Assembly: GCA_016705545.1 (NCBI GenBank)
Contig: JADIYA010000007.1
Span: forward strand, 163,728 to 227,727
From: Flavobacteriales bacterium
GTDB lineage: Bacteria > Bacteroidota > Bacteroidia > Flavobacteriales_F > PHOS-HE28
DNA length: 64,000 nt
Direction of reading: 5' to 3'
Below are positions 1,318-54,599 of the stretch, one piece after another; position 1 is the first letter of the stretch, and each line of letters starts with the position of its first letter. The position numbers were made by a program, and so were the translations under genes. Below the pieces are notes generated by a model. It made no database searches and was not told where the DNA came from. It saw only the letters and a program-made list of their open reading frames with translations.

Positions 1318-1401
1318 TGCGCCGAGGGAGCTGGTGAACGCTGACAGCGGCAGATCATTGCGAGCGGCAACGCCTTCCCCGCGAATCCGTCTTCTAGTCG
1401 T

Positions 1402-1836
1402 ATGGATATCCAACGCATCACCACTGAAGAAACCTATCCCTTGCGCCTGCTTGTGCTCCGGCCGGGCGGCGCACTGAGGGAGGTTCAGTGGCCGCACGAC
1501 AACGATGAAGCCGCATTCCACCTGGGTGCGCAGAACGGTGCCGGGTTGATCGGCGTGGGTACCTTCTACCCTGAGAAGCACAAGGGCATCAAAGGCCCGC
1601 GCCCCTTCCGCCTGCGCGGCATGGCCACGCACCCCGACCATCGTGGCCGCGGCGCCGGTGGCCTCATCGTGCGCCACGCCATCGAGGAACTGCGCAAGCT
1701 CGATTGCACGCTGCTCTGGTGCAACGCGCGGATCAAGGCCGTGCCCTTCTATGAGCGCGAAGGCTTCCAGATACATGGTGAGGCCTTCGAACTGCCGGTG
1801 ATCGGCATGCACTACGTGATGTGGAGGAAGGTGTGA
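1402..1836 (+). CDS. GNAT family N-acetyltransferase.
   Basis: A 144-aa ORF. The motif RGRGAGGLIVRHAIEELRKLDCTLLWCNARIKAVPFYEREGF is a GNAT acetyl-CoA binding motif (R/Q-x-x-G-x-G/A). Confidence 0.8.
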   Translation: MDIQRITTEETYPLRLLVLRPGGALREVQWPHDNDEAAFHLGAQNGAGLIGVGTFYPEKHKGIKGPRPFRLRGMATHPDHRGRGAGGLIVRHAIEELRKLDCTLLWCNARIKAVPFYEREGFQIHGEAFELPVIGMHYVMWRKV

Positions 1837-1977
1837 GGATCGGAGTGGACTGATTCGCTGCCGATTTCAGGTAGTGCTTTACGGGCTATGGCCGGTTCTG
1901 CATTCTGCGATGCATTCCTTCCGCTGGTGCGACAATGATCCGGTTTCGGGTTACGTGCGCAGGATTAACCTTGCGCC

Positions 1978-3375: not shown

Positions 3376-3525
3376 CCAGAGGCCTTGGGCCGGATGGTTG
3401 TTCGATGCTTCGGGCAACGGAAGGTCCTGAACAGCCGTCCAATGGCTGTGTAAACCTGGCCTTGCCATGAGGTGAGGTCAATGCTACCGGAGCCTCTACC
3501 TTTCCGCACCCAAGCCCAAGCCCTG

Positions 3526-13216: not shown

Positions 13217-14245
13217 ATGCAAACCCAACCCGTCGCCAAGCCTTCGCCCACCCAAGCTGCCAGCGCTGCAGCGGGAGCACGGCCCGTTTCGGCATTCATC
13301 GAGAAGCACTTCCTTCACTTCAACGCCGCCGCCCTCGTGGATGCCGCCAAGGGCTACAAGGAGCACTTGGGCAAGGGGAGGAAGATGATGATCACCCTGG
13401 CCGGGGCCATGAGCACCGGTGAGTTGGGCAAGATCCTCGCGGAGATGATCCGCCAAGGGAAGGTCGATATCATCAGCTGTACCGGCGCCAACCTAGAGGA
13501 AGACGTGATGAACCTGGTGGCGCACGACCACTATGAACGGATCCCCCACTACCGCGACCTCACCCCTATGCAAGAGCGCGCATTGCTCGACCGCGGCATG
13601 AATCGCGTCACCGACACCTGCATCCCCGAGCACGAGGCCTTCCGCCGTTTGGAGAAGCACGTCCTCGACCTCTGGACCGCCGACGATAAGAGCGGCAACC
13701 GCCGATTCCCGCACGAGTACTTCTACGCCATGATCAAGAGCGGCGTGCTGCAGCAGTACTACCAGATCGATCCGAAGGACAGCTGGATGGTGGCTGCGGC
13801 CGAGCGGAACCTGCCCATCATCTGCCCCGGTTGGGAGGACAGTACGCTGGGCAACATCTTCGCCGGCCATTGCATGACCGGCGATTGCAAGCCGCAGATG
13901 ATGAAGAGCGGCATCGAGTACATGATGTTCCTGGCCGAATGGTACACGAATAATTGCGGTACGGACGGCATCGGCTTCTTCCAGATCGGCGGAGGTATCG
14001 CGGGCGACTTCCCCATCTGCGTGGTGCCCATGCTGCATCAGGACCTTCAGCGCGATCACATCCCCTTCTGGAGCTTTTTCTGCCAGATCAGCGACAGCAC
14101 CACCAGCTACGGCAGTTATAGCGGAGCCGTGCCCAACGAGAAGATCACCTGGGGAAAGCTCGATACCGACACCCCGAAGCACATCATCGAGAGTGATGCT
14201 ACTATTGTGGCGCCCCTCATCTTCGCCTACGTCCTCGACATGTAA
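13217..14245 (+). CDS. Deoxyhypusine synthase family protein.
   Basis: A 342-aa protein. The motifs MMITLAGAMSTGELG, ISCTGANLEED, GGGIAGDFPICVVP and TSYGSYSGAVPNEKITWGK match the deoxyhypusine synthase fold, including the conserved active-site lysine region. Confidence 0.85.
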   Translation: MQTQPVAKPSPTQAASAAAGARPVSAFIEKHFLHFNAAALVDAAKGYKEHLGKGRKMMITLAGAMSTGELGKILAEMIRQGKVDIISCTGANLEEDVMNLVAHDHYERIPHYRDLTPMQERALLDRGMNRVTDTCIPEHEAFRRLEKHVLDLWTADDKSGNRRFPHEYFYAMIKSGVLQQYYQIDPKDSWMVAAAERNLPIICPGWEDSTLGNIFAGHCMTGDCKPQMMKSGIEYMMFLAEWYTNNCGTDGIGFFQIGGGIAGDFPICVVPMLHQDLQRDHIPFWSFFCQISDSTTSYGSYSGAVPNEKITWGKLDTDTPKHIIESDATIVAPLIFAYVLDM

Positions 14246-14251
14246 TCACCC

Positions 14252-14674
14252 ATGCAGCGCCTGATCCGCTCCTTCAACACCTTGACCGATGCGCTCAAGG
14301 AGACCTTGCAGGAACAATATCCTGACGGGATCGACACCTCGCACATCAAGACCATCCCCACCGCCAAAGGCGAGATGCTGCGGGTGATCGAGCTCAGTAC
14401 GCCTGAAGCCTTGTACCTGATCAAGATCAATGCGGAGAGCCGCGCGGAGATCGAGGAATTCCTGGATCAGGACAACGAGCCCGCCGCTGCCGGTGATGAT
14501 GACCTCGATGCAGAGGATGGAATCGAAGGCGAGGCGGATGACGAAGGTGATGGCATCGACGACGCCGATGACGCGGATGACGACGATGATACCAATGACG
14601 GCGACGGCGACGACGATGATGAGGACGATGACGGGGACGCCGGTGATGATGATAAGGACGATGACGAGGACTGA
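14252..14674 (+). CDS. Hypothetical protein with a 65-residue poly-Asp/Glu C-terminal tail, 6 bp downstream of the deoxyhypusine synthase gene.
   Basis: An N-terminal domain of about 75 aa: MQRLIRSFNTLTDALKETLQEQYPDGIDTSHIKTIPTAKGEMLRVIELSTPEALYLIKINAESRAEIEEFL. It is followed by DDDLDAEDGIEGEADDEGDGIDDADDADDDDDTNDGDGDDDDEDDDGDAGDDDKDDDED. I could not recognise the family. Confidence 0.55.
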   Translation: MQRLIRSFNTLTDALKETLQEQYPDGIDTSHIKTIPTAKGEMLRVIELSTPEALYLIKINAESRAEIEEFLDQDNEPAAAGDDDLDAEDGIEGEADDEGDGIDDADDADDDDDTNDGDGDDDDEDDDGDAGDDDKDDDED

Positions 14675-14699
14675 TTCCCGCTGAACCATGCTCCCGACG

Positions 14700-14736
14700 C
14701 AGGCCCCGGATAACCCTGGGGCCTGTTTACTTTCGG
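14700..14736 (+). terminator. Candidate rho-independent terminator after the acidic-tail gene.
   Basis: An 8-bp stem caggcccc / ggggcctg with a 10-nt loop, followed by tttactttc. It starts 26 bp after the stop at 14674. Confidence 0.45.
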
Positions 14737-14751
14737 GGCAACACCCGCAAC

Positions 14752-15168
14752 ATGAACGGCACCTTTCACATCGCCATTGCCACCACGGACCTTAAGCGCA
14801 TGAAGGCCTTCTACGGGAGATTCCTCGGCCTCAAGGAAGGTCGGAGCGCCAAGACCTGGGTCGATTTCGACTTCTTCGGCCACCAGCTCACCATCCAGGA
14901 AGTGCCCGTGACTTACCGGACCGCGCGCATCTACAACCCGGAATCGAATGTTCCCAGCGACCATTGGGGCATCGTGCTTTCCATGAGCGACTGGAAAAAA
15001 CTGCGCGACAAGCTCAAGAAGGTCGGCCATCCCTTCTTCATTGAGCCGCGCATGGTGATGAAGGGCGAAGTGGGTGAGCAGCGCAGCATGTTCATCGAGG
15101 ACCCCGATGGTCACGCGATCGAGTTCAAGGCTTTCGAGGATGCGTATGATCTGTTCCGTAAAGCATGA
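14752..15168 (+). CDS. VOC family protein (glyoxalase/bleomycin-resistance/dioxygenase fold).
   Basis: A 138-aa protein. MNGTFHIAIATTDLKRMKAFYGRFLGL...DPDGHAIEF is the typical VOC metal-binding His/Glu arrangement. Confidence 0.75.
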   Translation: MNGTFHIAIATTDLKRMKAFYGRFLGLKEGRSAKTWVDFDFFGHQLTIQEVPVTYRTARIYNPESNVPSDHWGIVLSMSDWKKLRDKLKKVGHPFFIEPRMVMKGEVGEQRSMFIEDPDGHAIEFKAFEDAYDLFRKA

Positions 15169-18815: not shown

Positions 18816-21800
18816 ATGAAGCACCGAAACCCATTGATAACCCAACTCGTGCGATTGGGTTCATTGCTCCTGCTCCTAGCCATTGGCTTGAGTTCAGCTG
18901 CACAGCACCGGCACGACCCGGTGAAGCCACGCGCGCAGCATCCCGGCCAAGACCATAGCCACGACCACGAGGGCATCGATGCACTGCTGAACCGGCATGA
19001 TCAGCGCATCACCTTCATGAAGAATGGCGGGCAGTTCGGATCCACAGTACTCTACCGTGCCGATTTCCCGCTTGGCCAGGCTGTCGCCACCGACAAAGGC
19101 ATGGTGGTCACCGCCTTCGATCCCATTGAAGTGGACAAGCGCACAGCGGAAGGCTTCCGCATCGAGGAAGAGATGGCGCAAGGCCTTCCGATGCGCGAGC
19201 TGCAATGGCGCAAACGCGGCCATGCGTGGCGCCACCGCTTCGTGGGCGCATCGAGTGAGATGCGCATCGAAGCGCGGGACAAGCACGCAGAATTGACGAA
19301 TTACTTCGTTGGCGACCGCAGCGCGCTGGATGTGGCCAGCTATCAGGAGGTCTGGTACACGGGCATCTATCCCAACATTGATGCACGCTACTACCCGGCT
19401 GCGGATGGCTCGCTCGAGTACGACGTGATCGTGATGCCAGGGGGCGACCCCAGCGAAGTCGCCATCGCTCATGACGGCATCGAACGCATGCGCGTGAACG
19501 AGAAGGGCGAGCTGGTCATCGAGACGATACTCGGCGAGATGGCCCACCCCGCGCCGTACGTGTACCAGCGCAACAATGGCCGCGAAATGCGGATCGACGC
19601 GACTTACAAGGTGGACGGGAACGTGCTGCGATTCGCCCTCGGTGCATATGACCGCACGCAGCCACTAGTGATTGATCCCATCGCCATGCGGTGGGCCACT
19701 TGGATCAACACCAACAGCAGCAGCGATAACCACGGTCATTGCATCTGGGTAGATCCGACCGATGGCGCGATCTACGTCGTTGCACGCGTAACAGGAACCA
19801 CCGACCAGATCACGCCCGGCGCATTCGATGAGACCGCAAATGGCGCCCTGGAGATGATTGTTGGCAAATACCTCGAGCCTGCCGCAATCGGCGGTAGCGG
19901 CACCCGCGTGTGGCAGACCTACATCGGCGGCAACGGCGATGACAACCCGTACGCAATGGAGCAAGGTCCCGATGGCAACCTCTACATCACCGGCCAGACC
20001 AGCAGCACCAACTTCCCGCTCCTAGGAGGCACGGCCTTCAGCGGCAGCAGCCTGAATCAGCAGGCGCAGAGCGACATCGATGTCTTCGTGCTGAAGATCA
20101 ACACTGCCGGAAATTCGATCAAGGCTGCGGTGGTTGGCGGCAACGGTGCCGATAACAACTTCGACGTGCGGCTGGCCGCCAATGGCGACGTGTTCGTAGC
20201 CGGAAGCACAACCAGCACCAACTTGCTCACGCTGAACCCCGGCAGTGGTGCAAGCAACACCAACAATGGTGGAAGCGATGTCTTCCTCTTCCGCATCAAC
20301 CAAGACCTTTCATCATTGGTATGGATGCGCAACTACGGAGGCGGCGCAACTGACCGGGCCAGCATCATGCTGCACGACCCAGCCACCGGTGACCTTTTTG
20401 TAGGTGGAAATACCAGCAGCACGAACTTCCCGACAGCAAGTCCACGCCAGGGCACGCGGGGCGGCAATACGGCTGGCTTCCTACAGCGCCTCAATGGTGC
20501 CACGGCGGCTACCTCATGGAGCAGCTATTTCTCCAGCGCAGCCAGTCAGAATGCCAACCTGCTCTGCATGGAGTTCAACACCTCAAAGGATGAGCTCTTC
20601 TTCGGCGGCGTCACCAGCGGCCTCAATAGCGCCAACATCACGGCCGGATCATATGACACAAGTCACAATGGCAACAATGACTTCTATGTCGGTCGCATGA
20701 CTGTCGACCAGACGTTCATCGCCGGCACCTACATCGGCGGCTCTGGCAATGAAGTGAACATGATGGGCCTCAACACCGATCTGAACAACGACGCGTATGT
20801 ATTCGGCTACAGCGCCAGCACGAACTTCCCGGTGAGCGCCTCGCCCAACGTGCCGCTGCAGACCACCAACCAAGGCAGCAATGACAAGGTGTTCTTCAAG
20901 CTGAAGAGCAGCCTGAACCAGCTTGAGTTCAGCACCTACTATGGCGGCACCAGCGACGACTACGACCCCGTCGGCGAGCGCGGCATCAAATTCAACGACT
21001 GCCGCATCTACACCATCGTCACGGCACAGAGCAACAACATCCCGCTCACCCAAGGCGCGCTCAACACCACGAAGAACAGCCCGACGAACCGCTACGAACC
21101 GGGGTTGGTGGTGTGGGCCAACCCACCCGACCTGCTGGGCAACAGCATCACCTATCAAGGCGTGTCCATCTGCCCAGGCGCAACACCCGGTGACATCACC
21201 GGATCGGAGCCGAGCTATTCGTTGCCCACCATCGTCCGCAACAACTCCGCATCGGGTTATCCCGCTTTCGCCAGCGCCGCAACTTATCAGTGGCAGATCA
21301 GCCTCGATAGCCTCAATTGGACCGACATCAACGGCGCCACCGGCCAGAACCTGCCTGGCTCGCTGATCGGGGCGATTACGCAGGACACATACATCCGCCG
21401 CATCATCGGCGGTGATGCCTGCATCCTTGCGGGCGCGGCCGATCAAGTGGTGAAAGTGCAATTGATGACCGCCGGCGGCAGCGTGACCGACGCACTCTGC
21501 AACGGCGCCGCAACAGGCAGCATCGCGGCAACAGCCGATGGTCAGGCCCCTTTCACATACGTATGGAGCGACGGCCAGACCACGGAGACCGCCATCAACC
21601 TCGCTGCTGGCCCCTATTCGGTAATCGTGACCGACTTCAACGGCTGCAGCGCCTCGGCAAATTTCGTCGTTGGGCAGCCTGCACCATTGAGCGCCGATGT
21701 TAACACCATGCTTGATGCCTGCGCAACTGGCACAGGCAGCGCGACCGCCACTGGTACGGGCGGCACACCTGGTTATGGCTATTTGTGGAGCACCGGCACC

Positions 21801-24800
21801 ACCGGTCCGAACCTCACGAATGTGAGTGCTGGCGCATACTCCGTGCAGGTCACCGACTTCAACCAATGCAGCGCGGTGGTGCTGGTCAATATCGATGGAA
21901 CCTTGCCGCCCTCTGCAAACGCTGGCGACGACCTGGAGATCAACTGCACTACCGGAACTTCCGTGCAATTGAATGGTTCCAGCCAGACGCCAGGCGTGAA
22001 CTTCAGCTGGACCGGCCCTGGCATCGTCAACGGCGGCGGTTCAGCCAACCCTACGGTGAACGCACCCGGTACCTATACACTAACGGTCACCAATCCCCAG
22101 ACAGGCTGCACCGCGACAGATCAAGTTGATGTCACAGTAAACACGACTGTCCCCGGCGCCCAGGCCGCTGGCGGGACCATCACCTGCAGCAACGAGTGCG
22201 TGATGCTCAGCGGCACCGGCAACGGAAGCTTCGCATGGAGCGGCCCGAGCAACTTCAACAGCACCGAGCAGAACCCCACCGTGTGCGCCCCGGCATCTAC
22301 ACCCTCGTGGTCACCGGCAGCAACGGCTGCACCAGCACCGCCACCGCTGAGGTGGAGCAGGACACCGATGTCCCCGGCGCCCAAGCCGCTGGCGGGACCA
22401 TCACCTGCAGCAACGAGTGCGTGATGCTCACGGGCACCGGCAACGGAAGCTTCGCATGGAGCGGCCCGAGCAACTTCAACAGCACCGAGCAGAACCCCAC
22501 CGTGTGCGCCCCCGGCACCTACACCAAGCACCGCCACCGCTGAGGTGGAGCAGGACACCGATGTCCCCGGCGCCCAGGCCGCTGGCGGGACCATCACCTG
22601 CAGCAAGAGTGCGTGTGCTCAGGGCACCGGCAGGAAGCTTGCATGGAGCGGCCGAGCAACTTCAACAGCACCGAGCAGAACCCACCGTGTGCGCGGCACC
22701 TCCCTCGGGCGGCCCGCCCAGGGGGCCGAGTCCCGGCAGGGCGGACCCCAGCCCCACCACCACCGGTGGTCACCGGCAGCAACGGCTGCACCAGCACCGC
22801 CACCGCTGAGGTGGAGCAGGACACCGATGTCCCCGGCGCCCAGGCCGCTGGCGGGACCATCACCTGCAGCAACGAGTGCGTGATGCTCACGGGCACCGGC
22901 AACGGAAGCTTCGCATGGAGCGGCCCGAGCAACTTCAACAGCACCGAGCAGAACCCCACCGTGTGCGCCCCGGCATCTACACGCTCGTGGTCACCGGCAG
23001 CAACGGCTGCACCAGCACCGCCACCGCTGAGGTGGAGCAGGACACCGATGTCCCCGGCGCCCAGGCCGCTGGCGGGACCATCACCTGCAGCAACGAGTGC
23101 GTGATGCTCACGGGCACCGGCAACGGAAGCTTCGCATGGAGCGGCCCGAGCAACTTCAACAGCACCGAGCAGAACCCCACCGTGTGCGCCCCGGCACCTA
23201 CACCCTGGTGGTCACCGGCAGCAACGGCTGCACCAGCACCGCCACCGCTGAGGTGGAGCGCCACCACAAGGACAACCGGCCAGGCCGCTGGCGGACCATC
23301 ACCTGCAGCAACGAGTGCGTGATGCTCACGGGCACCGGCAACGGAAGCTTCGCATGGAGCGGCCCGAGCAACTTCAACAGCACCGAGCAGAACCCCACCG
23401 TGTGCGCCCCGGCACCTACACCCTCGTGGTGACCGGCAGCAACGGCTGCACCAGCACCGCCACCGCTGAGGTGGAGCAGGACAACGATGTCCCCGGCGCC
23501 CAGGCCGCTGGCGGGACCATCACCTGCAGCAACGAGTGCGTGATGCTCACGGGCACCGGCAACGGAAGCTTCGCATGGAGCGGCCCGAGCAACTTCAACA
23601 GCACCGAGCAGAACCCCACCGTGTGCGCCCCCGGCACCTACACCCTGGTGGTCACCGGCAGCAACGGCTGCACCAGCACCGCCACCGCTGAGGTGGAGCA
23701 GGACACCGATGTCCCCGGCGCCCAAGCCGCTGGCGGGACCATCACCTGCAGCAACGAGTGCGTGATGCTCACGGGCACCGGCAACGGAAGCTTCGCATGG
23801 AGCGGCCCGAGCAACTTCAACAGCACCGAGCAGAACCCCACCGTGTGCGCCCCGGCACCTACACCCTGGTGGTCACCGGCAGCAACGGCTGCACCAGCAC
23901 CGCCACCGCTGAGGTGGAGCAGGACACCGATGTCCCCGGCGCCCAGGCCGCTGGCGGGACCATCACCTGCAGCAACGAGTGCGTGATGCTCACGGGCACC
24001 GGCAACGGAAGCTTCGCATGGAGCGGCCCGAACAACTTCAACAGCACCGAGCAGAACCCCACCGTGTGCGCCCCGGCACCTACACCCTGGTGGTCACCGG
24101 CAGCAACGGCTGCACCAGCACCGCCACCGCTGAGGTGGAGCAGGACACCGATGTCCCCGGCGCCCAGGCCGCTGGCGGGACCATCACCTGCAGCAACGAG
24201 TGCGTGATGCTCACGGGCACCGGCAACGGAAGCTTCGCATGGAGCGGCCCGAGCAACTTCAACAGCACCGAGCAGAACCCCACCGTGTGCGCCCCCGGCA
24301 CCTACACCCTGGTGGTCACCGGCAGCAACGGCTGCACCAGCACCGCCACCGCTGAGGTGGAGCAGGACAACGATGTCCCCGGCGCCCAGGCCGCTGGCGG
24401 GACCATCACCTGCAGCAACGAGTGCGTGATGCTCACGGGCACCGGCAACGGAAGCTTCGCATGGAGCGGCCCGAGCAACTTCAACAGCACCGAGCAGAAC
24501 CCCACCGTGTGCGCCCCCGGCACCTACACCCTGGTGGTCACCGGCAGCAACGGCTGCACCAGCACCGCCACCGCTGAGGTGGAGCAGGACAACGATGTCC
24601 CCGGCGCCCAGGCCGCTGGCGGGACCATCACCTGCAGCAACGAGTGCGTGATGCTCACGGGCACCGGCAACGGAAGCTTCGCATGGAGCGGCCCGAACAA
24701 CTTCAACAGCACCGAGCAGAACCCCACCGTGTGCGCCCCCGGCACCTACACACCTGGTGGTCACCGGCAGCAACGGCTGCACCAGCACCGCCACCGCTGA

Positions 24801-27644
24801 GGTGGAGCAGGACACCGATGTCCCCGGCGCCCAGGCCGCTGGCGGGACCATCACCTGCAGCAACGAGTGCGTGATGCTCACGGGCACCGGCAACGGAAGC
24901 TTCGCATGGAGCGGCCCGAGCAACTTCAACAGCACCGAGCAGAACCCCACCGTGTGCGCCCCCGGCACCTACACCCTGGTGGTCACCGGCAGCAACGGCT
25001 GCACCAGCACCGCCACCGCTGAGGTGGAGCAGGACACCGATGTCCCCGGCGCCCAGGCCGCTGGCGGGACCATCACCTGCAGCAACGAGTGCGTGATGCT
25101 CACGGGCACCGGCAACGGAAGCTTCGCATGGAGCGGCCCGAGCAACTTCAACAGCACCGAGCAGAACCCCACCGTGTGCGCCCCCGGCACCTACACCCTG
25201 GTGGTCACCGGCAGCAACGGCTGCACCAGCACCGCCACCGCTGAGGTGGAGCAGGACACCGATGTCCCGGCGCCCAGGCCGCTGGCGGGACCATCACCTG
25301 CAGCAACGAGTGCGTGATGCTCACGGGCACCGGCAACGGAAGCTTGCATGGAGCGGCCCGAGCAACTTCAACAGCACCGGAGCAGAACCCCACCGTGTGC
25401 GCCCCGGCACCTACACCCTGGTGGTCACCGGCAGCAACGGCTGCACCAGCACCGCCACCGCTGAGGTGGAGCAGGACACCGATGTCCCCGGCGCCCAGCC
25501 GCTGGCGGGACCATCACCTGCAGCAACGAGTGCGTGATGCTCACGGGCACCGGCAACGGAAGCTTCCGGCATGGAGCGGCCCGAGCAACTTCAACAGCAC
25601 CGAGCAGAACCCCACCGTGTGCGCCCCGGCACCTACACCTGGTGGTCACCGGCAGCAACGGCTGCACCAGCACCGCCACCGCTGAGGTGGAGCAGGACAC
25701 CGATGTCCCCGGCCCAGGCCGCTGGCGGGACCATCACCTGCAGCAACGAGTGCGTGATGCTCACGGGCACCGGCAACGGAAGCTTCGCATGGAGCGGCCC
25801 GAGCAACTTCAACAGCACCGAGCAGAACCCCACCGTGTGCGCCCCGGGCACCTACACGCTCGTGGTCACCGGCAGCAACGGCTGCACCAGCACCGCCACC
25901 GCTGAGGTGGAGCAGGACACCGATGTCCCCGGCGCCCAGGCCGCTGGCGGGACCATCACCTGCAGCAACGAGTGCGTGATGCTCACGGGCACCGGCAACG
26001 GAAGCTTGCATGGAGCGGCCCGAGCAACTTCAACAGCACCGAGCAGAACCCCACCGTGTGCGCCCCCGGCACCTACACCCTGGTGGTCACCGGCAGCAAC
26101 GGCTGCACCAGCACCGCCACCGCTGGGTGGGCAGACATGTCCCCGCCCCAGCCGCTGGCGGGACCATCACCTGCAGCAACGAGTGCGTGATGCTCACGGG
26201 CACCGGCAACGGAAGCTTCGCATGGAGCGGCCCGAGCAACTTCAACAGCACCGAGCAGAACCCCACCGTGTGCGCCCCCGGCACCTACACCCTGGTGGTC
26301 ACCGGCAGCAACGGCTGCACCAGCACCGCCACCGCTGAGGTGGGCGCCGATTTCGATGCACCACAAGCCACACTGACCAGCACCCTGATCGGTTGCGAAG
26401 GCGAACCCGCAACGGTGAGCTACACCAGCACCAGCGCAATCGCCTCGGCTGAATGGTACAACGCCAATGGCCTCGTGGGCAGCGGCAGTTCCATCTCAAC
26501 GAGCACACCAGGTGCCTACACGCTCATTCTCACCGCGCTCAATGGCTGCACTAATGAATTCAGCATCGAGGTGCAGCAGAACACCGATTGTGACAAGGAC
26601 TGCGAGCCCTTGATCCTCACCTGCCCGTCTGATATCACGGTGGCCTGCGCCGACGACTTCTCACCCTTCGGGCTCGGTGGCGAACCTGTCTTCAATAAGA
26701 ACAAGGACGACGAATGCCCGGATGTCGTTCAGGCATGGTGGAGCGATGTGATCCTAAGCAACTGCCCATACGTGATCCGCCGCACCTGGCATGCTGTGGG
26801 TAGCGATGGCAGCACCGAGACCTGCACGCAGTACATCACCGTGATCGACGACGTGGCGCCCATCTTCTACAATGTGCCCGACGGCATCAACATCGCCTGC
26901 GATGCGGACATGGACGCGATCACCACGCCCGATGTGACTGCCTACGATGAATGCACCAAGGTGGATGTTGCCGTCTATCACAATATGGAAATCGTGCAAG
27001 GCAATTGCGCTGGCAACTACTCCATCATCCATACCTGGACATCGCAGGACCAGTGCGGGAACATCGGTACGGCCACTTGGACAATTGAGGTGATCGACAA
27101 CGTACCGCCTGTCATCAGCTGCCCGGTGGAAGACATCTCGGTAGAATGCAAGGATGTGCCGGAGCCCACCGACAAATGTGAAGCCTCGGACAATTGCTCA
27201 GCGGAAGTAACCATCACCGTGGAGGAGGAGAAGGGCGAACAGGATGAAGACGGCAAATACGTCATCACCCGCACCTACATCGCCATTGACGAATGCGGCA
27301 ACACGAGCACTCAGGTGCAGCTCATCACCGTGTGGTGCGACAAGAAAGAGGAAGACGGAAAAGGCCCGGTGCAAGCAGGCATCAAGATGGTAGCGAGCGC
27401 ATGGCCGAACCCCTTCCGCGAGGAGAGCAGCATCAGCATCACAGCGCAGGAGAGCGGACTTGTCCAAGTGATCGTCACTGACCTGCAAGGGCGCGTGGTG
27501 AGCGAGTTGTACAACGGCCATGTGGAGGCTGGCGCAATGGTGGTGCTGCCCTTCCGCCCAGCCGAGCGCAATGGCGGCGCCTATCTCTACCGCGTAAGGC
27601 TCAATGGCGAGGAACTCATGGGCCGCATACTGGCGCAGCCCTGA
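18816..27644 (+). CDS. Giant T9SS-secreted adhesin-like protein of about 2,900 aa if read continuously. It contains SBBP beta-propeller repeats, SprB repeats, about 19 tandem 74-aa Ig/PKD-like repeats and HYR-like repeats. The frame is broken many times inside the tandem array.
   Basis: Signal peptide MKHRNPLITQLVRLGSLLLLLAIGLSSAAQ at 18816. SBBP-type repeats: LYITGQTSSTNFP...DVFVLKINTAG, DVFVAGSTTSTNL...DVFLFRINQD. SprB repeats: CNGAATGSIAATADGQAPFTYVWSDGQTTETAINLAAGPYSVIVTDFNGC. The repeat array runs 22145..26340. HYR-like Cys-rich repeats span 26580..27300. C-terminal VASAWPNPFREESSISITAQ...YLYRVRLNGEELMGRILAQP is a T9SS type A tail. It is continuous from 18816 to about 22285 and from about 26340 to 27644, and fragmented into overlapping ORFs in all three forward frames in between. 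Confidence 0.75.
22145..26340 (+). repeat. Tandem array of about 19 near-identical 222-bp coding repeats (74-aa unit ...PGAQAAGGTITCSNECVMLTGTGNGSFAWSGPSNFNSTEQNPTVCAPGTYTLVVTGSNGCTSTATAEVEQDTDV), flanked by diverged edge copies.
   Basis: The 222-bp period is visible by eye. Interior units are about 97-100% identical, with recurrent variants (gacaccgat/gacaacgat giving D/N; agcaac/aacaac giving S/N). Indels cluster in C/G homopolymers (gcgcccccggcacc vs gcgccccggcatc). Copies at 22600..22800 and 25260..26200 are badly degraded. Confidence 0.9.
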
Positions 27645-30626: not shown

Positions 30627-33529
30627 ATGCCTGCACTGCGAATGCTCCTGCGCGGATTCCTCCGCCTCTTCGTCCCATGCTGCTGCTGTGCGGCGGCGGC
30701 TCATGCCCAGCAGTACAAGCTGCGCGGCATCGTGAGCGACGGCGCCACCGGTGAGACCCTCGTCGGCGCCAACGTGTTGCTCAAGGGCACCACAAACGGC
30801 ACGGTCACCGACATCGACGGGCGCTTCCAGTTGCTGGTGAGTGAGCTCCCGCCCTACACCCTTGTGGTGAGCTACATCGGATACACGCCGCTTGAACTCG
30901 TGGTGAAGAGCCTCGACAAGGAATTGAAGCTGAAACTCAGCACCGACCAGGTGCTGCTGGACGAGACCGAAGTCGTAGGCAGCCGCATCAGCGAGAAGCA
31001 GAAGCAGGCGCCGCTCACGGTGGAGAGCATGGACGTGATCGCCATCCGCGAAGCGCCCAGCGGCGACTTCTACGAGAGCCTCGGCACCCTCAAGGGCGTG
31101 GATATGACGGCAGCGAGCATGGGCTTCAAGGTACTCAACACGCGCGGCTTCAACAGCACCAGTCCCGTGCGCTCCTTGCAGCTGATCGACGGCGTGGACA
31201 ACCAGAGCCCCGGCCTCAACTTCTCACTGGGCAACTTCCTTGGCGCAAGCGACCTGGATGTGATGAAGGTGGACGTGATCGCCGGAGCAAGCACCGCCTA
31301 CTATGGCCCGGGCGCATTCAACGGCGTGGTGAGCATGACCACCAAGAGCCCGTGGAATTTCCCCGGCCTCAGCGTGAGCGCCAAGGGAGGTGAACGCGGG
31401 CTGCTTGAGGGAGCCGTTCGGTGGGCACAAGTCTTCAAGGACAAGGACGGCAAGCCGCGAGTCGCCTACAAGCTGAACATGTTCGGCATGCGTGCCGAGG
31501 ATTGGTACGCGCAGGATTATGGCGCAACGAGCAACAGCCCAACGCAACCGGGAAACCCTGGCCGCTACGATGGCGTGAACATCTACGGCGATGAGAACGT
31601 GACGGTGAACAACGACTTCAGTAACAACGCATTCGACCGCAGGACCTATCCCGGCCTTGGCTTATTCCTGCGACCTGGTTACCGAGAGGAAGACCTCGTT
31701 GACTACGGCACCACAACCTGAAGGCCGGCGCTTCGCTGCACTACAAGCTCACCGATAGCGTGGAGGTGATCGCAGCCGCCAACTACAGCACGGGCAGCAC
31801 GGTCTATCAAGGTGAGAATCGTTACCGCTTGGACGGCGTGCAATTCTGGCAACAACGGATCGAGCTGCGCAAGGAAGGCAAGTGGTTCGTGCGCGGCTAC
31901 TACACCGGCGAGGACGCCGGCAAGACCTACGACATCTTCACCACGGGCGTACGCCTCCAGGAAGCTGGCGGCGAAACGCGAGAGTGGAACGTCAAATACT
32001 TCACGCTGTGGGAGACCTGGATCAAGCCGCGCATCAACAACGAACGGCCTGATTTCATCACGGTGCAGGAGGCGCCCGGTGCGGGCATCACAACGCAAGC
32101 TGCCTACGATGCCTACATCCAGCAATTCGTCGCGGACAACAGCGGGCTATTCACTGGCTACCACAACGAGGTGGCCGATAGCATCGCCTTGATCGACAAC
32201 AACGAATTGAATCCATCCTACGTCGCGGGCACACAGCGCTTCAACGAGAAGCTCGATGAGATACGTGGCAAGCGCTTCACCGAAGGCGGATCGCTCTTCT
32301 ACGACCGGAGCGCGCTGGCGCACGCCATGGGCGAGTACCGCTTCAAGCCGAGGTTCGCAGAGATCGCCATAGGCGGCAGCTTCCGGCAGTACATGCCCAA
32401 CAGCGCGGGCACCATCTTCCGCGATACCGGCAATGTGGTGATCCGAAACAACGAATTCGGGCTCTATGCCGGCCTCGAGAAGAAGCTGATGAAGGAGAAG
32501 CTGAAGGCTACGGCCACGCTCCGAATGGACAAGAACCAGAACTTCAACGCGCTGCTCTCCCCTGCGCTGTCCTTCGTGTATGTGCCACGTCAGGACCGCA
32601 CCTTTCGGGTGAGCTTCAGCAGTGCGGTGCGCAACCCGACGCTCGCTGACCAGTACCTCTACTACAACGTGGGTCGCGCCATCCTCCTTGGCAATGTCGA
32701 TGGACAGTTCGAGGGCGGCCGCGACAGCCTGATCACCGTGGAGAGCTTCAACGATTACCGCTCCTCGCCCACCCTGCTCGAAGGCTTGGCAAAACTCGAC
32801 TACTTCAACGTTGACCGGCTGCGCCCCGAGCAGGTGCGCACCATTGAGGCCGGATACCGCGGAACGCATGCCGAGAAGTTCTACGTGGATGTGAGCGCCT
32901 ACAGCAGCTGGTACACCGATTTCATCGGTTACCTCATCGGGCTCAGCGCGCGCTTCGATCAGACCAATGGATTCCCCGTGGGCGGCCTTCAGGCCTACCG
33001 CCTTGCTGCCAACGCCACCACCACCGTGCGCACCCAAGGCGCCAACCTCGGCGTGAGCTACTTCCGCAAGCGGATGACCTACAGCGCGAACTACAGCTAC
33101 AACGAGCTCATCACCGGCGACGATGACCCCATCATCCCGGCCTTCAACACGCCGCGCAGCAAATTCAATGTGAGCTTTACCGGCCACGACATGAAGGTGC
33201 CCTTCAGCGGCAAGCCCAACCTCGGCTTCGGCATCAATTGGAAGTACGTGGAGGGCTTCACCTTCACCGGCTCACCGCAGTTCACCGGCCCTATCCCCAG
33301 CTACGACATGATCGATGCCCAGGTGAACGTCAAGTTCCCCGTGCAGCACCTCACGGTGAAGGTGGGCGGCAGCAATCTGTTCGGTTTCATCCCCATGTTC
33401 GAGGACTCGGAACCCAACAGGCCGCGGTGGGAACGCGTCTTCGACAATCAGGTGCGCATGGTGTACGGCGGCCCCTTCGTGGGAAGGCTGGCCTACGTGC
33501 AGCTGATCTATGAATTGGATAGGCGCTGA
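30627..33529 (+). CDS. TonB-dependent receptor with an N-terminal carboxypeptidase-regulatory-like domain. A single-base indel near 31712 splits the frame (ORFs 30627..31721 and 31760..33529).
   Basis: Signal peptide, CarbopepD_reg-like YKLRGIVSDGATGETLVGANVLLKGTTNGTVTDIDGRFQL, plug domain, and a beta-barrel ending in an aromatic C-terminus. At 31706..31716 ggcaccacaacctg is read where ggcacccacaacctg (GTHNLKAGASLHYKL) is expected. Confidence 0.8.
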
Positions 33530-36066
33530 TCACTTCAGCACTGCGAGCCGCTCCTCCAGTGCTTTGATCTTGGCCTCGGCGTCGGCCTTCTTCTTCCGCT
33601 CGGTTTCCAGCACCTGCGGCGGTGCTCCGTTCACGAATCGCTCGTTGCTGAGCTTCTTCTCCACGCTGGCGAGGAACCCACGCAGGTGCACGAGCTCTGC
33701 TTCAGCTTTCTTCGCTTCAGCCTCGGTGTCGATGTTGCCGCCGAGATCCACTGCATACTCGGTTGTTCCTACAAGGAAAGTGATGGAGCCTTCGCTGGCC
33801 TTCTCCACCTCGGCGATGGCCGTTACGTTGGCCAGCTTGTTCACCAACGCTGAAACGGCCGCACGCATGGGCGCAGCACCCTTGGCCAGCACTTCCAGCG
33901 GCGCCTTCGGACTCATGCCGCGCTCGTTGCGCACGTTGCGAACGGCAGTCACCAGGTCGAAGGCATGCTGCACCTCGGCATCGAGCCTCGCATCGCCCGC
34001 GCCGCCCTTGGGCCATGCAGCTACGACACGGTGGCCTCGTAGGTCTTACGATCGATCGGTTCGGCCACGCCCTCCCCCGCCGCGTTCTTCACGAAGGCAG
34101 TCTTGATGCTCTCCAGGTACCAGCTGCACAGGTCATCCCATACCAGCTTGTAGGTGGCCATGAGCGCCTCACTGATGCGGAACTGCGCAAAGAGCTGATC
34201 GATCTCGGTGGTGCTGCGTGACACACGGCTCTGCATCCAGGCGACAGCCGCCGCTGATGAAGCCGGTTGCGAACGGTCATCGACGCTCCAACCCTTCACC
34301 AAGCGGAAGGCGTTCCAGATCTTGTTGCTGAAGTTGCGGCCCTGCTCGCAGAGCGAATCGTCGTAGGGCAGGTCGTTGCCAGCGGGACTGGTGAGCAGCA
34401 TGCCCACGCGCACGCCATCGGCGCCGAACTTCTCGATCAGCTCCAAGGGGTCGGGGCTGTTGCCGAGGCTCTTGCTCATCTTTCGGCCCTGCTTGTCGCG
34501 CACGATGCCGGTGAGGTACACGTTCTTGAACGGCACCTCCTGGCGGTACTCCATGCCGGCCATGATCATGCGTGCCACCCAGAAGAAGAGGATTTCCGGC
34601 GCGGTGACGAGGTCGTTCGTAGGGTAGTAATACTTGATGTCGGCGTTGTTCGGGTCCTTGAAACCATTGAATACGCTGATGGGCCAGAGCCAGCTGCTGA
34701 ACCAGGTGTCAACGACATCCTCATCCTGCTTGATGCCGTTGGTGCTTTGTCCGGCAGCCTTGAATTGTGCCATCGCTTCGGCTTCGGACCTGCACACGGC
34801 GGCGTCACCCGCATCGTTGTACCATGCGGGCACTTGCTGCCCCCACCACAACTGGCGGCTGATGCACCAATCGCGCACGTTCTCCATCCAATAGGTGTAG
34901 GTGTTGGCGAACTTCTGCGGGTGCAGTTTCACCCGGCCATCCTTCACCACTTCCAAGGCGGGCTTGGCCAGCTCGCCCATCTTCACGAACCACTGCAAGG
35001 AGAGGCGCGGCTCAATAACAGCATCGGTGCGCTCGCTGTAGCCCACTTTGTTCTTGATGTCCTCGATCTTGACGATGTGCCCTTTCTCTTCCAGCTCCTT
35101 CACGATCTTCTTGCGCACAGCGAAGCGCTCCTCACCCACGTACAGCTGAGCGGCTGGGCTGAGCGTGCCATTCGGTTCCAGAATGTCGATGGTCTCGAGA
35201 TTGTGCTTCTTTCCCAGTTCGTGGTCATTCGTATCGTGCGCAGGCGTGACCTTCAGTGCACCGGTGCCGAATTCGCGCTCCACGTACTCATCGAAGATGA
35301 CAGGGATGCTGCGTCCGATCAGCGGTACCAAGGCGCGCTTGCCCTTCAGGTGGGCATAGCGCTCATCCTCCGGGTGGACCGCGATGGCGGTATCGCCGAG
35401 TATCGTCTCCGGGCGCGTGGTGGCTATGGTGACCCATTGCTCCGTTGCGCCATCAATCGCGTAGCGCACATGGAAGAGCCTTGAATTCTGCTCCTTCATG
35501 ATCACCTCTTCGTCGCTCACGGCCGTCAACGCCACCGGATCCCAGTTCACCATGCGCAGGCCGCGGTAGACCAGGCCTTTCTTATGCAGGTCGATGAAGA
35601 CGTCGATGACGGCCTCGCTGAGGTCGGGCTCCATGGTGAAGCGCGTGCGGTCCCAATCACAGCTGGCGCCGAGCTTCTTCAACTGCTCCAGGATCACGCC
35701 GCCGTACTTCTCCTTCCACGCAAAGGCATGCTTCAGGAATTCCTCACGTCCGATCGCGCTCTTCTTGATCCCTTGTTCGCCCAGCAGCCGCACCACCTTC
35801 GCTTCGGTCGCGATGCTCGCGTGATCGGTGCCGGGGACCCAGCAGGCGTTCTTGCCTTGCATGCGCGCGCGGCGCACCAGCACATCCTGGATGGTGTTGT
35901 TGAGCATGTGCCCCATGTGAAGCACGCCCGTCACGTTGGGCGGCGGTATCACCACGGTATAGGGCTCGCGCGCGTCGGGCACACTGCGGAAGTAGGCCTT
36001 GGCCATCCAATGCGGGTACCACCTGGCCTCGGCTTGCTGCGGATCGAAATGCTTGGGGATCTCCAT
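33530..36066 (-). CDS. valS: Valine--tRNA ligase. Reading frame is interrupted between 33973 and 34021.
   Basis: The N-terminal ORF 34021..36066 has HMGH ([17 protein letters not shown]), a KMSKS motif (KMSKSLGN) and editing and anticodon-binding domains. ORF 33530..33973 is the ValRS C-terminal coiled-coil domain (...[38 protein letters not shown]...). The two ORFs are separated by a frame break. Confidence 0.9.
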
Positions 36067-36150
36067 CGCCTGAAATGAGCGGCGAAAGTAGCCCGCTGGC
36101 AATCGCCGCAAGTCCTAGGACGCTCAGGGTATCTTGCCGCACAGTCCACC

Positions 36151-38163
36151 ATGCGTCGAAGCCCGCTCCGTGATGCCCTCGAAGCCATGGCCGCCAGCGA
36201 TGGCAGCGATGTGCAGCCGCTCGCCATGCTGGTGCAAGCCGTGCGGCCATCGCGCTCCGAAAGCAAGCGGGGTGAAGCGCCGCGATTCATGGCTCTTCTG
36301 CAGTTGATCGAGCACCACGACGATCTGCGCGAGGGCCTTTCGCGCTATGTGCACCGATACTTCAGCGGCAAGGCCATCAGCCGCACTCTCACCGATGCCG
36401 GCATGCCGAGCGGGACCTTCTGGCAAGAACTGCAGCAGCGCCTCACCTACAAGGTGCTGCCGTATCAGCCTGCGCCCGAAACGCTCGACCACGCCCTGAT
36501 CAACGCCTTTTTCCAGGAAGGGGATGCGGACTGGGTGAGCGCCCTGCCCGACGGCGACGTGGTGCGGCTGCTGGCCCTTCTCGGTGTCGATGGCATTGAT
36601 GCGCGCGAGCGCCACGGGCTGTTGATGCAGGAGCTCTTCTTCGCAGCCAAGGTGCTGGCGTTGCGCATCGCCGGGCGCGCCTTCGACGGCGAGGTGCTGC
36701 GCATGGTACCCGAGCATGCCAACTTCAACAGTCCCTTCGTACGCCTCGAGGATGCGCTGGACCGCTACCTCGACCAGCTGCGGCTGGGCGAAGCATCGCG
36801 CCGACCGGATGACCCAGAGCGCATGCCTGTGCTGGTCCTGCTCGACGATTGCCATGCGGCCATCGCCGATGCGTACCGCAATAGCGAGGCGCTGGGCATC
36901 ACGTTCCGTGTGAATCAGCACCTGGTCCTGATGGAGCGCATGCTTCGGCGCCTGCGCGGCGTGCTCGATGCCATTGCGCCGCCAGCGGAAATCGATGGTC
37001 GTACGGCATTGGCGCGCATGCTGAAGGAAGTGGTGCGCATCAGCAGTGGCCGCACGCGCGTCGGCGCTTTCATCCAGGAGAGCACCCAAGTGGTGGCGAG
37101 GGAGATCACGCAGCACACGGGCCGCAAGGGGGAGCATTACATCACCACCAGCCGCAGCGAGTACCTGTCCATGCTGCGCAGCGCGCTGGGAGGCGGCGCT
37201 ATTGTAGCCGTGGCGTGCATGCTGAAGGCCTGGTACGGCAGCATCGAGGGCAGCCTCTTCTTCCACGCCTTCTTGTACAGCATGAACTACGCGATGGCCT
37301 TCATCGCCATCTACCTCCTGCACCTCACCTTGGCCACCAAGCAGCCCGCCATGACCGCCGCCACCATTGCGCAAGCGCTCGACGAGGGCCGCCACGATGG
37401 GAGCATGCATTACGATTCGCTCAGTGAATTGGTGGCGCGCGTGTGGCGCAGCCAGTTCATCGCCTTCGTGGGAAATGTGGCCATGGCCTTCCCAGTGTCG
37501 TTGGCGCTCGCCTACGGGTGGAATGCGCTCTTCGGCCCGGAACTGCTCGCGCACAAATCGGAGAAGATGCTGCACGAGCTCGACCCCTTCCGGTCGCTGG
37601 CCATCCCGCACGCCGCCATCGCCGGGATCTTCCTCTTCATCAGCGGTCTCATCGCGGGCAGCATCACCAATGCGAGCATCCACCGCAATGTGCCGTTGCG
37701 CATCCAGGAGCATCCGGCGCTGAAGGTGGTGATGAGCGAGCGCTGGAGGCGGCGGATCGCCCGTGCGTACGAACAGCACGCAGGCGGCGTGATCAGCAAT
37801 TTCTGGTTCGGTGTCTTCATGGGGTCGGTCGGCGCGGTGGGTGCTTTCCTGGGCCTCGCGCTCGATATCCGCCACATCACCTTCGCCGCTGGCAACCTGG
37901 GCCTGGGGCTGGTAGGCATCGATTGGACCACGACGCTGTACACAGTGATCGCCTCTGTGCTCGGCATCGGCCTCATCGGGCTGTTCAACTTCATCGTCAG
38001 CTTCGCACTGTCGCTCATCCTGGCCATGCGCTCGCGCGGCATCGCCTTCCAGGACCTGCTGCCCATGCTCGTGGCCGTGCGGCACCGCTTCGCCCGGGAG
38101 CCTCGGTCGTTCTTCTTCCCTCCACTGGACCGATCTGCACCCGCTGCCGACCCAGAAACGTAA
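36151..38163 (+). CDS. Large hypothetical membrane protein. It may belong to the poorly characterised family annotated as site-specific recombinase (PF10136-like); function unknown.
   Basis: A 670-aa protein. A soluble N-terminal domain of about 330 aa is followed by a C-terminal half with at least six predicted TM helices (AIVAVACMLKAWYG, AMAFIAIYLLHLTLA, IAGIFLFISGLIAG, FWFGVFMGSVGAVGAFLGLAL, LGLGLVGIDWTTTLYTVIASVLGIGLIGLF). Family assignment is from memory and is not verified. Confidence 0.45.
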   Translation: MRRSPLRDALEAMAASDGSDVQPLAMLVQAVRPSRSESKRGEAPRFMALLQLIEHHDDLREGLSRYVHRYFSGKAISRTLTDAGMPSGTFWQELQQRLTYKVLPYQPAPETLDHALINAFFQEGDADWVSALPDGDVVRLLALLGVDGIDARERHGLLMQELFFAAKVLALRIAGRAFDGEVLRMVPEHANFNSPFVRLEDALDRYLDQLRLGEASRRPDDPERMPVLVLLDDCHAAIADAYRNSEALGITFRVNQHLVLMERMLRRLRGVLDAIAPPAEIDGRTALARMLKEVVRISSGRTRVGAFIQESTQVVAREITQHTGRKGEHYITTSRSEYLSMLRSALGGGAIVAVACMLKAWYGSIEGSLFFHAFLYSMNYAMAFIAIYLLHLTLATKQPAMTAATIAQALDEGRHDGSMHYDSLSELVARVWRSQFIAFVGNVAMAFPVSLALAYGWNALFGPELLAHKSEKMLHELDPFRSLAIPHAAIAGIFLFISGLIAGSITNASIHRNVPLRIQEHPALKVVMSERWRRRIARAYEQHAGGVISNFWFGVFMGSVGAVGAFLGLALDIRHITFAAGNLGLGLVGIDWTTTLYTVIASVLGIGLIGLFNFIVSFALSLILAMRSRGIAFQDLLPMLVAVRHRFAREPRSFFFPPLDRSAPAADPET

Positions 38164-38201
38164 GGAAACGCGACCTAGCGCGACCATCGCTGCAAATCCA
38201 C

Positions 38202-41722: not shown

Positions 41723-41794
41723 GGCGAGAGGATCAGGGTTGCCGAAAATAAGAAGGTGGATGCGTGTCCACGCCTTCACGAGTATCCGGGCCGG

Positions 41795-52776: not shown

Positions 52777-54599
52777 ATGCACGACCAAGAGGCGCTCAGC
52801 GCCATGAAGCTCGCTGAGCTGAAGGACATCGCGAAGAAGCTAGGCCTGAAGAAGACCGACACCCTGAAGAAGCAGGACCTGGTGGCCAAGATCCTGGAGG
52901 CCCAAGCTTCCAAAAAGGGCGAAGGGGAAAAGGCCATTGGCCCAGCCTTCCGCGGCGACGATAAGGACCTCACCGACCTAGCCACTTCGGACGAACCCAG
53001 CGTTGTAGAGGATCCCGAACCGGAGCCTACGACCATGGGCGATGACCATGACGACGACGAGGAGGACGGTGATGACGATGAGGAGGACGATGATGACGAG
53101 GACGAGGACGAGACCAGCGAAACGGACGTGAAGGCTGCTTCCGGCGCCCCTCCACCGCCTCCAGAGGCTCCATCCGGTCAGAATCCGAACCGCGAGACCC
53201 GGCAGGACCGTTGGCGAGATCGTCGCGAGCGTCAACGGCAGGAGCGTCAACAAGGAGGCGAACAACGTCCGGCGCAGGAGCAGCGCCCGCAGCAGGAACC
53301 CCGCTCCAGAACAGGGCGATCGCCCACGCGAGGATCGGCGCGATGACGCCGCGACGACCGGCGCGATGATCGCCGCGAACCGCGCCAGGACCGTCCGCAA
53401 GGCAATGGCGGAGAGCAGCGGGTCGACCAACGCGGCGATCAGCAGCGGCAGGACCGCCCTTTCCAGCCGCCGCGCGAGCAGGTCACCTTCGACGCCTTCG
53501 TGGAATGCGAAGGCGTGCTGGAAGTGATGCCCGAAGGCTATGGCTTCCTGCGCAGCAGCGACTACAACTACCTCGCATCGCCGGACGATGTGTACGTGAC
53601 GCAGCAGATCATCAAGCGCTGGCCTGAAGCTCGGCGACACGGTGAGCGGCTTCGTGCGCCCGCCACGCGAGGAGGACAAGTTCTTCCCGCTGGTGAAGAT
53701 CGATCGGATCAACGGCCGCGATCCCGAATGGGTCCGCGACCGTGTCCCCTTCAAGTTCCTAACCCCCTGTTCCCCGACGAGAAATTCACCTCGCCGCCAA
53801 GGACACCAACATCAGCATGCGCGTGCTCGACCTCTTCGCGCCCATCGGCAAGGGACAGCGCGGCTTGATCGTGGCTCAGCCCAAGACCGGCAAGACCGTG
53901 CTGCTGAAGGACGTGGCCAACGCCATCGCCGCGAATCATCCGGAAGCGTACCTGATCGTGCTGCTCATCGATGAGCGCCCGGAGGAAGTGACCGACATGG
54001 CCCGCAGCGTGAAGGCCGAAGTGATCGCGAGCACCTTCGACGAACCCGCCTCACGCCACGTGGCGGTCGCCGGCATCGTGCTGGAAAAAGCGAAGGCGCT
54101 CACGGAATGTGGTCACGATGTGGTGATCCTGCTCGACTCCATCACGCGCCTGGCCCGCGCCTACAACACCGTGCAACCGGCCAGCGGCAAGATCCTCAGC
54201 GGTGGTGTGGACGCGAACGCGCTGCAGAAGCCCAAGCGCTTCTTCGGAGCCGCGCGGAAGATCGAGAACGGCGGCTCACTCACCATCCTCGCCACCGCTC
54301 TGGTCGATACCGGCAGCAAGATGGACGAGGTGATCTTCGAGGAGTTCAAGGGCACGGGCAACATGGAACTCGTGCTCGACCGGAAGATCAGCAACCGCCG
54401 CATCTTCCCCGCCATCGACATCATGAGCAGCGGTACCCGCCGCGACGATCTGCTGCACCACAAGGAAGTCCTCCAACGCACGTGGATCCTGCGCAAGCAC
54501 CTCGCCGACATGAACCCCGTTGAAGCCATGGAGTTCGTGAAGAAGCACATGGAGGGTACGAAGAGCAACGAGGAGTTCCTGGTCTGGATGAATGGTTGA
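52777..54599 (+). CDS. rho: Transcription termination factor Rho with a long low-complexity N-terminal insertion (acidic, then R/Q/D-rich). An in-frame TGA at 53344 and at least three indels interrupt the frame.
   Basis: N-terminus [43 protein letters not shown]. Insertion: ...[21 protein letters not shown]...[18 protein letters not shown]...[21 protein letters not shown]-binding OB region [34 protein letters not shown]. ATPase core 53817..54599: [32 protein letters not shown]...[16 protein letters not shown]. The frame switches near 53619 (extra t) and at about 53766 and 53784 (C-run deletions). Confidence 0.9.

Follow-up and report, generated by a model that had tools for sequence, protein, structure and literature searches.

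The window considered here, that is, the whole 64-kb stretch of DNA that was analysed, belongs to an uncultured wastewater member of the Flavobacteriales and carries on its forward strand a gene (ATG at 18816, stop at 27644) built around a tandem array of 222-bp units. The locus is read, with a probability of roughly 0.8, as one intact gene for a protein of ~2,950 amino acids (aa) that would be exported by the Sec pathway and the type IX secretion system (T9SS) and would act as a periscope-like fibrillar adhesin, with a homogenised stalk and artefactual breaks of the reading frame. The analysis establishes the array, the domain content of the protein, the concerted evolution of the units, the artefactual frameshifts and the collapse of the array in short-read assemblies.

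The 222-bp array and its gene

The original prediction described a single secreted protein encoded between 18816 and 27644. These limits hold, as the region begins with an ATG followed by a signal-peptide-like sequence and ends with the stop at 27644, but the sequence as given has no continuous open reading frame (ORF). After repair of the frame, the protein comprises 1117 + 19x74 + 425 = 2,948 aa. Its features, all on the forward strand, are the following.

18816..18905, +: start codon and Sec-type signal peptide, MKHRNPLITQLVRLGSLLLLLAIGLSSAAQ; by inspection, basic n-region, Leu-rich h-region and SAA-Q
19014..19682, +: DUF7948, aa 67-289, first part of the predicted distal head (Pfam PF25778, E 5.2e-54, 184 bits)
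19700..21130, +: SBBP-type beta-propeller, ~aa 295-770, approximate limits (Pfam SBBP, 37.1 bits for a cut-off of 20.5)
21480..21850, +: two SprB repeats, the best at aa 889-922, end approximate (PF13573, 44.3 bits for a cut-off of 28, two stretches)
21918..22166, +: diverged Ig-like unit directly 5' of the array (partial nhmmer match to the unit consensus; pairwise alignment)
22167..26366, +: homogenised array in protein register, 19 units of nominally 222 bp/74 aa (Tandem Repeats Finder limits 22148-26343)
26367..26600, +: diverged Ig-like unit 3' of the array (29 % aa identity to the consensus)
26592..27370, +: Cys-rich region resembling HYR, in which inspection of motifs gives three modules
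27129-27332, +: HYR_4C-scoring module (PF23237, 26.1 bits, just under the cut-off of 27)
27402..27644, +: T9SS type A C-terminal sorting domain and stop (NCBIfam TIGR04183, 27.6 bits for a cut-off of 23)

The Pfam and NCBIfam scores above cut-off bear out the announced giant T9SS type A cargo with SBBP and SprB modules, and DUF7948 (E 5e-54) completes the first description of the gene, from which this domain was missing. The TIGR04183 match spans residues 416-486 of the C-terminal fragment. With a type A tail above cut-off and a signal peptide that looks typical by inspection, the protein is a predicted T9SS type A cargo. The claim of HYR-like Cys-rich modules stands in part: three of them are recognised by motif, whereas the HYR_4C score stays under its cut-off. 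PF23237 and PF18962 are precomputed for many orthologues.

The stretch 22148-26343 is the sole long tandem array of the window and is recovered by Tandem Repeats Finder as one array with a period of 221/222, 18.9 copies, 91 % matches and 2 % indels, in agreement with the ~19 tandem 74-aa units first described. The array was cut at a conserved anchor into 19 pieces, which were aligned with MAFFT. Their consensus is exactly 222 bp long, and its translation in a single frame (74 aa) is AGGTITCSNECVMLTGTGNGSFAWSGPSNFNSTEQNPTVCAPGTYTLVVTGSNGCTSTATAEVEQDTDVPGAQ. Between units, the mean nucleotide identity within the array reaches 98.2 % (gaps ignored). The flanking units are diverged, as had been noticed, with aa identities to the consensus of 49 % upstream and 29 % downstream, and form a classic edge effect.

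Substitutions relative to the consensus amount to ~21 over the 19 units, and most of them recur in at least two units. The recurrent variants include S->N in two units, T->N within the motif D-T-D in three, T->I in two, and a silent CTG/CTC change. Of the recurrent D/N and S/N variants first listed, the latter is found as such, whereas the 'D/N' variant is really the T->N change, which sits in the inter-domain linker D-T-D. Each unit of the window contains four cysteines at positions 7, 11, 40 and 55 (e.g. 24838-25059). In most related units, cysteines are limited to C7 and C55, which are invariant, the additional pair being shared with some other lineages. A 65-nt pattern across a unit junction, searched as an exact match in JGI metagenome contigs, gave none. 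Long antisense ORFs within the array (e.g. 23859..24968) were dismissed as by-products of a high-GC repeat.

Frame breaks and assembly of the repeat

As assembled in the window, the frame of the gene switches repeatedly between 22288 and 26151. The upstream frame stops at 22424 and the last ORF covers 26010-27644. Relative to the unit consensus, the array contains ~45 indel events, among which deletions far exceed insertions and eight correspond to the loss of one C from the same C5 run. Five of the 19 units are free of indels, and a sixth measures 223 bp. Two stretches stand out.

22525..22770, +: most damaged stretch; unit 2 lacks 29 bp, and unit 3 has six 1-bp deletions, one 2-bp deletion and an unalignable insert of ~50 bp
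25060..26153, +: second indel cluster; 17 events in four of five units, the unit 25721-25942 being clean

The unit 22581-22846 accumulates 12 indel events, including the ~50 bp of unalignable sequence. A strain available as three independent assemblies, 99.3-99.9 % identical to the window and reached via protein databases, served for comparison.

L080 (= L084) and L083: MEGAHIT k141 contigs; one unit assembled; flanks of ~11.2 kb, 99.6-99.8 % identical
L082: 564-kb contig of GCA_963851565.1; 18 units; flanks of 16.4 kb with 36 substitutions and one 1-bp gap

Over the ~11.2 kb of flanks shared with L080, 34 substitutions and no indel separate this contig from the window, every indel lying within array units; those at 26137-26151 are also visible against L080. 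The flanks compared total ~27 kb and contain 70 substitutions, one 1-bp deletion and one 104-bp deletion in the window. Indel density in the array is ~170x that of the flanks. Of the 18 units of L082, 17 measure exactly 222 bp, including its counterparts of the degraded units at 22525-22770. The sole array indel of L082, an extra A at a polymorphic ACC/AAC site, is absent from the window and looks like a consensus artefact. Conversely, none of the array indels of the window is present in L080, L083 or L082. Because the indels are concentrated in the array, exceed substitutions there and are not reproduced in the sister assembly, the frame breaks and the degraded units are concluded to be sequencing or assembly consensus errors and not signs of pseudogenisation, as had been suspected for 22600-22800 and 25260-26200. 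They would be long-read-type consensus errors, arising in a repeat where reads lack unique placement for polishing.

A frame broken as many times as in this assembly might also belong to a genuine decaying pseudogene, the protein of which would be cut at ~1,200 aa and deprived of its secretion tail. Two deletions relative to L082, one of 1 bp in the gene of a TonB-dependent receptor and one of 104 bp in valS, are readable as traces of a decaying genome. Such decay is nevertheless highly unlikely. Indeed, indels outnumber substitutions by ~2:1 in the array, whereas the 70 substitutions in the 27 kb of flanks are accompanied by one 1-bp indel; no frameshift is common to the near-identical strain, which is in frame except for one artefact-like base; and the units are still 98 % identical, with substitution variants that mostly recur. 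The truncated valS, an essential gene, is more likely itself an assembly error.

These two deletions were also described in their own right. Around 34026 (34021-34030), in valS (ORF 34021..36111, - strand), 104 bp found in L082 (14392-14497) between GCTACG direct repeats are missing from the window, so that the valyl-tRNA synthetase counts 696 aa in the window versus 879 aa in L082. The probable origin of this loss in an essential gene is an assembly error, or else a deletion variant present in a minority. The 1-bp deletion at 31712, the sole single-base indel in 16.4 kb of non-repeat sequence compared with L082, splits the TonB-dependent receptor into the ORFs 30627..31721 and 31760..33529 (+), whereas the receptor is intact in L082 (962 aa). 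It is likely a further error of the window.

Phase variation or programmed frameshifting at the C4/C5 tract was considered and rejected: L082 has C5 in 18 of 18 units, and the other ~37 indels are scattered, some of them in unalignable sequence.

Conversely, the true gene might possess one or a few units and have been inflated by a long-read assembler. Two MEGAHIT assemblies contain a clean one-unit ORF of 1,613 aa (P0002), and the array of the window is visibly of low quality. In a k=141 de Bruijn assembly, however, a 222-bp perfect repeat forms a cycle that can collapse, and both one-unit contigs are assemblies of this kind. Two other short-read contigs of the near-identical strain begin inside the last unit, and the array coincides with a contig end in 38 of 79 related loci by our own count. 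Collapse and contig ends of this type are what is expected of a 222-bp perfect repeat, and the anticipated collapse of the array by short reads is thereby seen in actual contigs. The long assemblies tell of more copies, with 19 and 18 units in two independent assemblies of the strain, 19.9 units in the 88 % orthologue L081, and 14-26 units in a dozen or more related genomes obtained by different projects, several of them in perfect frame. The arrays of the window and of L082 also have in common the variants 82G>A, 199C>A, 218G>A and the triple 125/137/140; several distinct copies are therefore needed. An inflated array is thus most improbable, and the array is real and not an assembler product. 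The difference between 19 units in the window and 18 in L082 suggests copy-number variation between strains, both counts being taken from error-prone or consensus assemblies.

Gene family, fold and proposed function

Hundreds of proteins are related to the first 1,156 aa; nearly all of them come from uncultured Flavobacteriales/Bacteroidota metagenome-assembled genomes (MAGs), many from activated sludge. When annotated, they are called 'SBBP repeat-containing' or 'T9SS type A sorting domain-containing' proteins, and a literature search on DUF7948/SBBP/T9SS found no paper. The 222-bp array is present in orthologues wherever contigs are long enough. The comparison of array length among related genomes gives 14-26 units in the MAG orthologues and designates the array as typical of the gene family. 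Copies and identity within the array are given below for six loci.

L011: 15.9 copies, 92 %
L018: 17.1 copies, 98 %
L027: 19.0 copies, 94 %
L081 (88 % aa orthologue): 19.9 copies, 98 %
L069: 20.0 copies, 96 %
L019: 22.5 copies, 91 %

In 9 of the 19 loci examined (L007, L011, L018, L019, L020, L022, L027, L058 and L074, with arrays of ~9-25 copies), the array lies within an unbroken ORF of 2,451-3,821 aa; broken ORFs are mostly found on contigs with names suggesting long-read assemblies (tig000..., ont). An intact gene is therefore taken as the normal state.

The window units share 92.4 % nucleotide identity with those of the nearest orthologous array (L081) and 64-78 % with those of eight other genomes, to be compared with 98.2 % among themselves. 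More generally, unit identity is 88-99 % within nine of ten genomes and 62-78 % between most genomes, and within-genome identity exceeds between-genome identity in all ten genomes compared. At the sequence level, this pattern is the signature of concerted evolution, which the original prediction had proposed on the basis of the near-identical units. As an example, the units of the orthologue P0001 are internally identical and differ from the window consensus by five fixed residues. Identity to L081 varies along the gene, with 83 % at the DNA level in the head region (18816-22147), 92 % in the array units and 93 % in the C-terminal region. The lower value of the head reflects either its faster evolution or different histories of the two parts through recombination. 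L007 has another, separate array (11-3386, period 228 bp, 14.8 copies, 72 % matches) at ~6.5 kb on the upstream side of the orthologue, which may belong to a second giant repeat protein encoded nearby.

The nature of the unit was approached by profile searches and structure prediction. Three concatenated 74-aa units give no match to PKD, Big, HYR or SprB Pfam models above the gathering threshold, and an NCBIfam scan gives no above-threshold match either; the Pfam matches are sub-threshold or inflated by the repeats (Ig_2 24 bits versus 27; K319L-like_PKD 17.1 versus 27). The sequence models that had been recommended thus fail to name the unit, the fold of which is nevertheless Ig/PKD-like and of the GhpA stem type. 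Indeed, AlphaFold2 predicts for a single unit a compact beta-sandwich with a predicted local distance difference test (pLDDT) score of 88.3, which Foldseek matches best to PKD-like domains of collagenases and to fragments of the GhpA stem (TMq 0.64-0.75), with values of 0.66-0.75 for the GhpA structures 9flw and 9flp. A profile built from 47 diverse units and compared with solved proteins has its overwhelming match in GhpA 9flp (E 9.3e-149, 17 stretches). The unit, a PKD/Ig-like sandwich, and the stem domains of GhpA belong to one sequence family.

The AlphaFold2 model of the head has a mean pLDDT of 83.8, DUF7948 being modelled as a beta-rich domain and the propeller blocks mostly reaching 90-97. 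Its best Foldseek match is CylK (E 7e-19), and the profile of alignment A2 matches the propeller blades of this protein (E 1e-22). By contrast, GhpA is absent from the phmmer matches of residues 1-1156 at E <= 0.1; the Ig-like units alone match GhpA.

From these elements, the protein would be exported by Sec and then by the T9SS, and its C-terminal end would be kept at the outer membrane after processing of the type A sorting domain. A rod of ~21 Ig/PKD-like domains, i.e. the 19 near-identical ones and one diverged unit per end, would hold the N-terminal head (DUF7948 and SBBP beta-propeller), presumed to be adhesive, tens of nanometres off the cell. At the ~4 nm per domain of GhpA, the fibre would measure roughly 80-100 nm. 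Unequal crossing-over or gene conversion within the array would keep the 19 units near-identical in DNA, and the same recombination could add or remove units and change the length of the stalk, as in a periscope-type fibrillar adhesin; real copy-number switching may thus take place. By analogy with GhpA and periscope proteins, a surface fibre is the most likely function.

The likeness to periscope proteins and fibrillar adhesins (Sgo_0707 SHIRT, Rib, SasG, Esp, CdrA; PMC8201768, PMC9704523) includes a single chain, an N-terminal functional head, individually folding stalk domains, near-identical DNA permitting intragenic recombination, and a repeat number that differs among relatives (here 14-26, and 19 versus 18 in two assemblies of one strain). 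As in the definition of PMC9704523, the domains are in tandem, highly identical (98.2 %) and folded individually in the model (pLDDT 88.3). The known proteins use sortase, autotransporter or type I secretion routes, whereas the T9SS of Bacteroidota and a presumed anchoring are concerned here. Bacteroidetes and the T9SS are not mentioned in either PMC8201768 or PMC9704523.

Another relative is GhpA from Aureispira sp. CCB-QB1 (PDB 9flp and others), in which successive Ig-like domains form a straight stem bearing an N-terminal hook on a T9SS substrate (10.1101/2024.01.29.577165). Both proteins share the family and fold of the Ig-like stem domains and the order signal peptide (a putative one in the window protein), N-terminal head, long Ig-like stem and T9SS sorting domain. 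GhpA differs by its 5,898 aa and its 52 'slightly varying' repeats, compared with 19 near-identical ones in the window protein, by a head unrelated in sequence, and by the PorP/PorE-like ghpB/ghpC genes that adjoin ghpA, whereas none adjoins the window gene. GhpA forms a heptamer, with disulfides between neighbouring Ig-like domains.

This relationship raises an alternative to a passive monomeric adhesin, namely the subunit of a multimeric, length-calibrated GhpA-type appendage, or a stalk bearing a catalytic CylK-like head. At the level of the family, it would amount to a widespread rigid appendage, length-calibrated and possibly multimeric, related to grappling hooks and catching cells, filaments or particles, with a head that may be catalytic; concerted evolution would then keep the stem units interchangeable. 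The membership of the units in the GhpA stem family and the common domain order speak for an appendage, together with a copy number confined to 14-26 across divergent lineages and the four cysteines per unit versus two in most relatives, GhpA using inter-domain disulfides. The resemblance of the head to CylK in both fold and sequence profile speaks for catalysis. The absence of a sequence match between the head and GhpA and of PorP/PorE-like flanking genes argues against the appendage, and the confinement of the CylK similarity to generic SBBP propeller blades argues against the enzyme. Both variants, drawn by analogy, are rather unlikely, and the window protein is not a GhpA orthologue because its locus has neither PorP/PorE-like neighbours nor a GhpA-type head.

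CylK, a cyanobacterial Friedel-Crafts alkylating enzyme (PDB 7fh6, 7ron), is the solved protein that matches the head best by both structure and profile, and it likewise has an SBBP beta-propeller behind an N-terminal beta domain. It shares 15-16 % identity with the head and, unlike the window protein, is a soluble enzyme with neither stalk nor T9SS tail.

The gliding adhesin SprB of Flavobacterium johnsoniae is likewise a giant T9SS-secreted surface filament protein of Bacteroidota with SprB repeats (PF13573). The window protein differs in having only two such repeats, a stalk made of a homogenised array and no adjacent sprF/porP-like gene. Its tail is also of type A (TIGR04183) and not a sorting domain of the SprB type.

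Several points weigh against an intact fibrillar adhesin. The order of the unit variants differs between the window and L082, by either real rearrangement or consensus scrambling. The copy number (19 in the window, 18 in L082) is an estimate from assemblies, and frameshifts could exist in a subpopulation. The HYR_4C score is 0.9 bits short of the Pfam threshold. Anchoring is assumed, yet release instead of attachment is the fate of many type A T9SS cargos; the nearest solved relative of the putative adhesive head, CylK, is an enzyme and not an adhesin.

Neighbouring genes and significance

The gene is preceded by Usp, YjdM and fatty-acid desaturase genes and followed by a CapD-like polysaccharide synthesis gene, DinB, DUF2214 and the TonB-dependent receptor; PorP-like or PorE-like genes are found neither among its upstream nor among its downstream neighbours. 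Three other ORFs of the window bear T9SS tails, which places the host in a T9SS-bearing lineage, in line with the Flavobacteriales MAGs among the relatives.

3472-6291, +: CotH kinase/LTD protein with a CHU_C (type B) tail
~38.2-39.26 kb, +: Omp28-like protein with a type A tail (Por_Secre_tail at ~39.0-39.26 kb)
40115-41779, -: S8 subtilase with a type A tail (Por_Secre_tail)

Other observations concern the rest of the window. A 670-aa protein encoded at 36151-38163 (+) matches Pfam PF10136 'Site-specific recombinase' from end to end (596 bits); its gene is overlapped by an equally long antisense ORF (36124..38187) and adjoins the Omp28-like T9SS cargo gene. At 9169-10068 (+), a MerR-family regulator with a B12-binding domain has the architecture of a CarH-like light or B12 sensor, and a homologue of bacterial deoxyhypusine synthase (PF01916, E 1.5e-41) is encoded at 13217-14245 (+). 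Short in-frame GAC/GAT/GAG tandem repeats (Asp/Glu runs) occur at 14595-14675, in the region of ORF 14467..15114 (-), which has no Pfam match, and at 53044-53111, in the region of ORF 52978..53754 (-).

The main practical lesson is that long-read consensus corrupts repeat arrays and that short-read assembly makes them disappear. Thus, frameshifted 'pseudogenes' in homogenised arrays of long-read MAGs are not to be trusted at face value, and short-read MAGs conceal such genes by reducing 19 units to one or by ending contigs at the array. A giant T9SS adhesin with a periscope-like stalk is a known kind of system in which nothing is mechanistically unexpected to the specialist. The locus adds a T9SS-secreted case from environmental Bacteroidota to the concept of periscope proteins and fibrillar adhesins, and its stalk domain is now linked to the sole solved structure of its family, the GhpA stem. 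Since wastewater Flavobacteriales commonly carry the family, it is a plausible player in floc adhesion.

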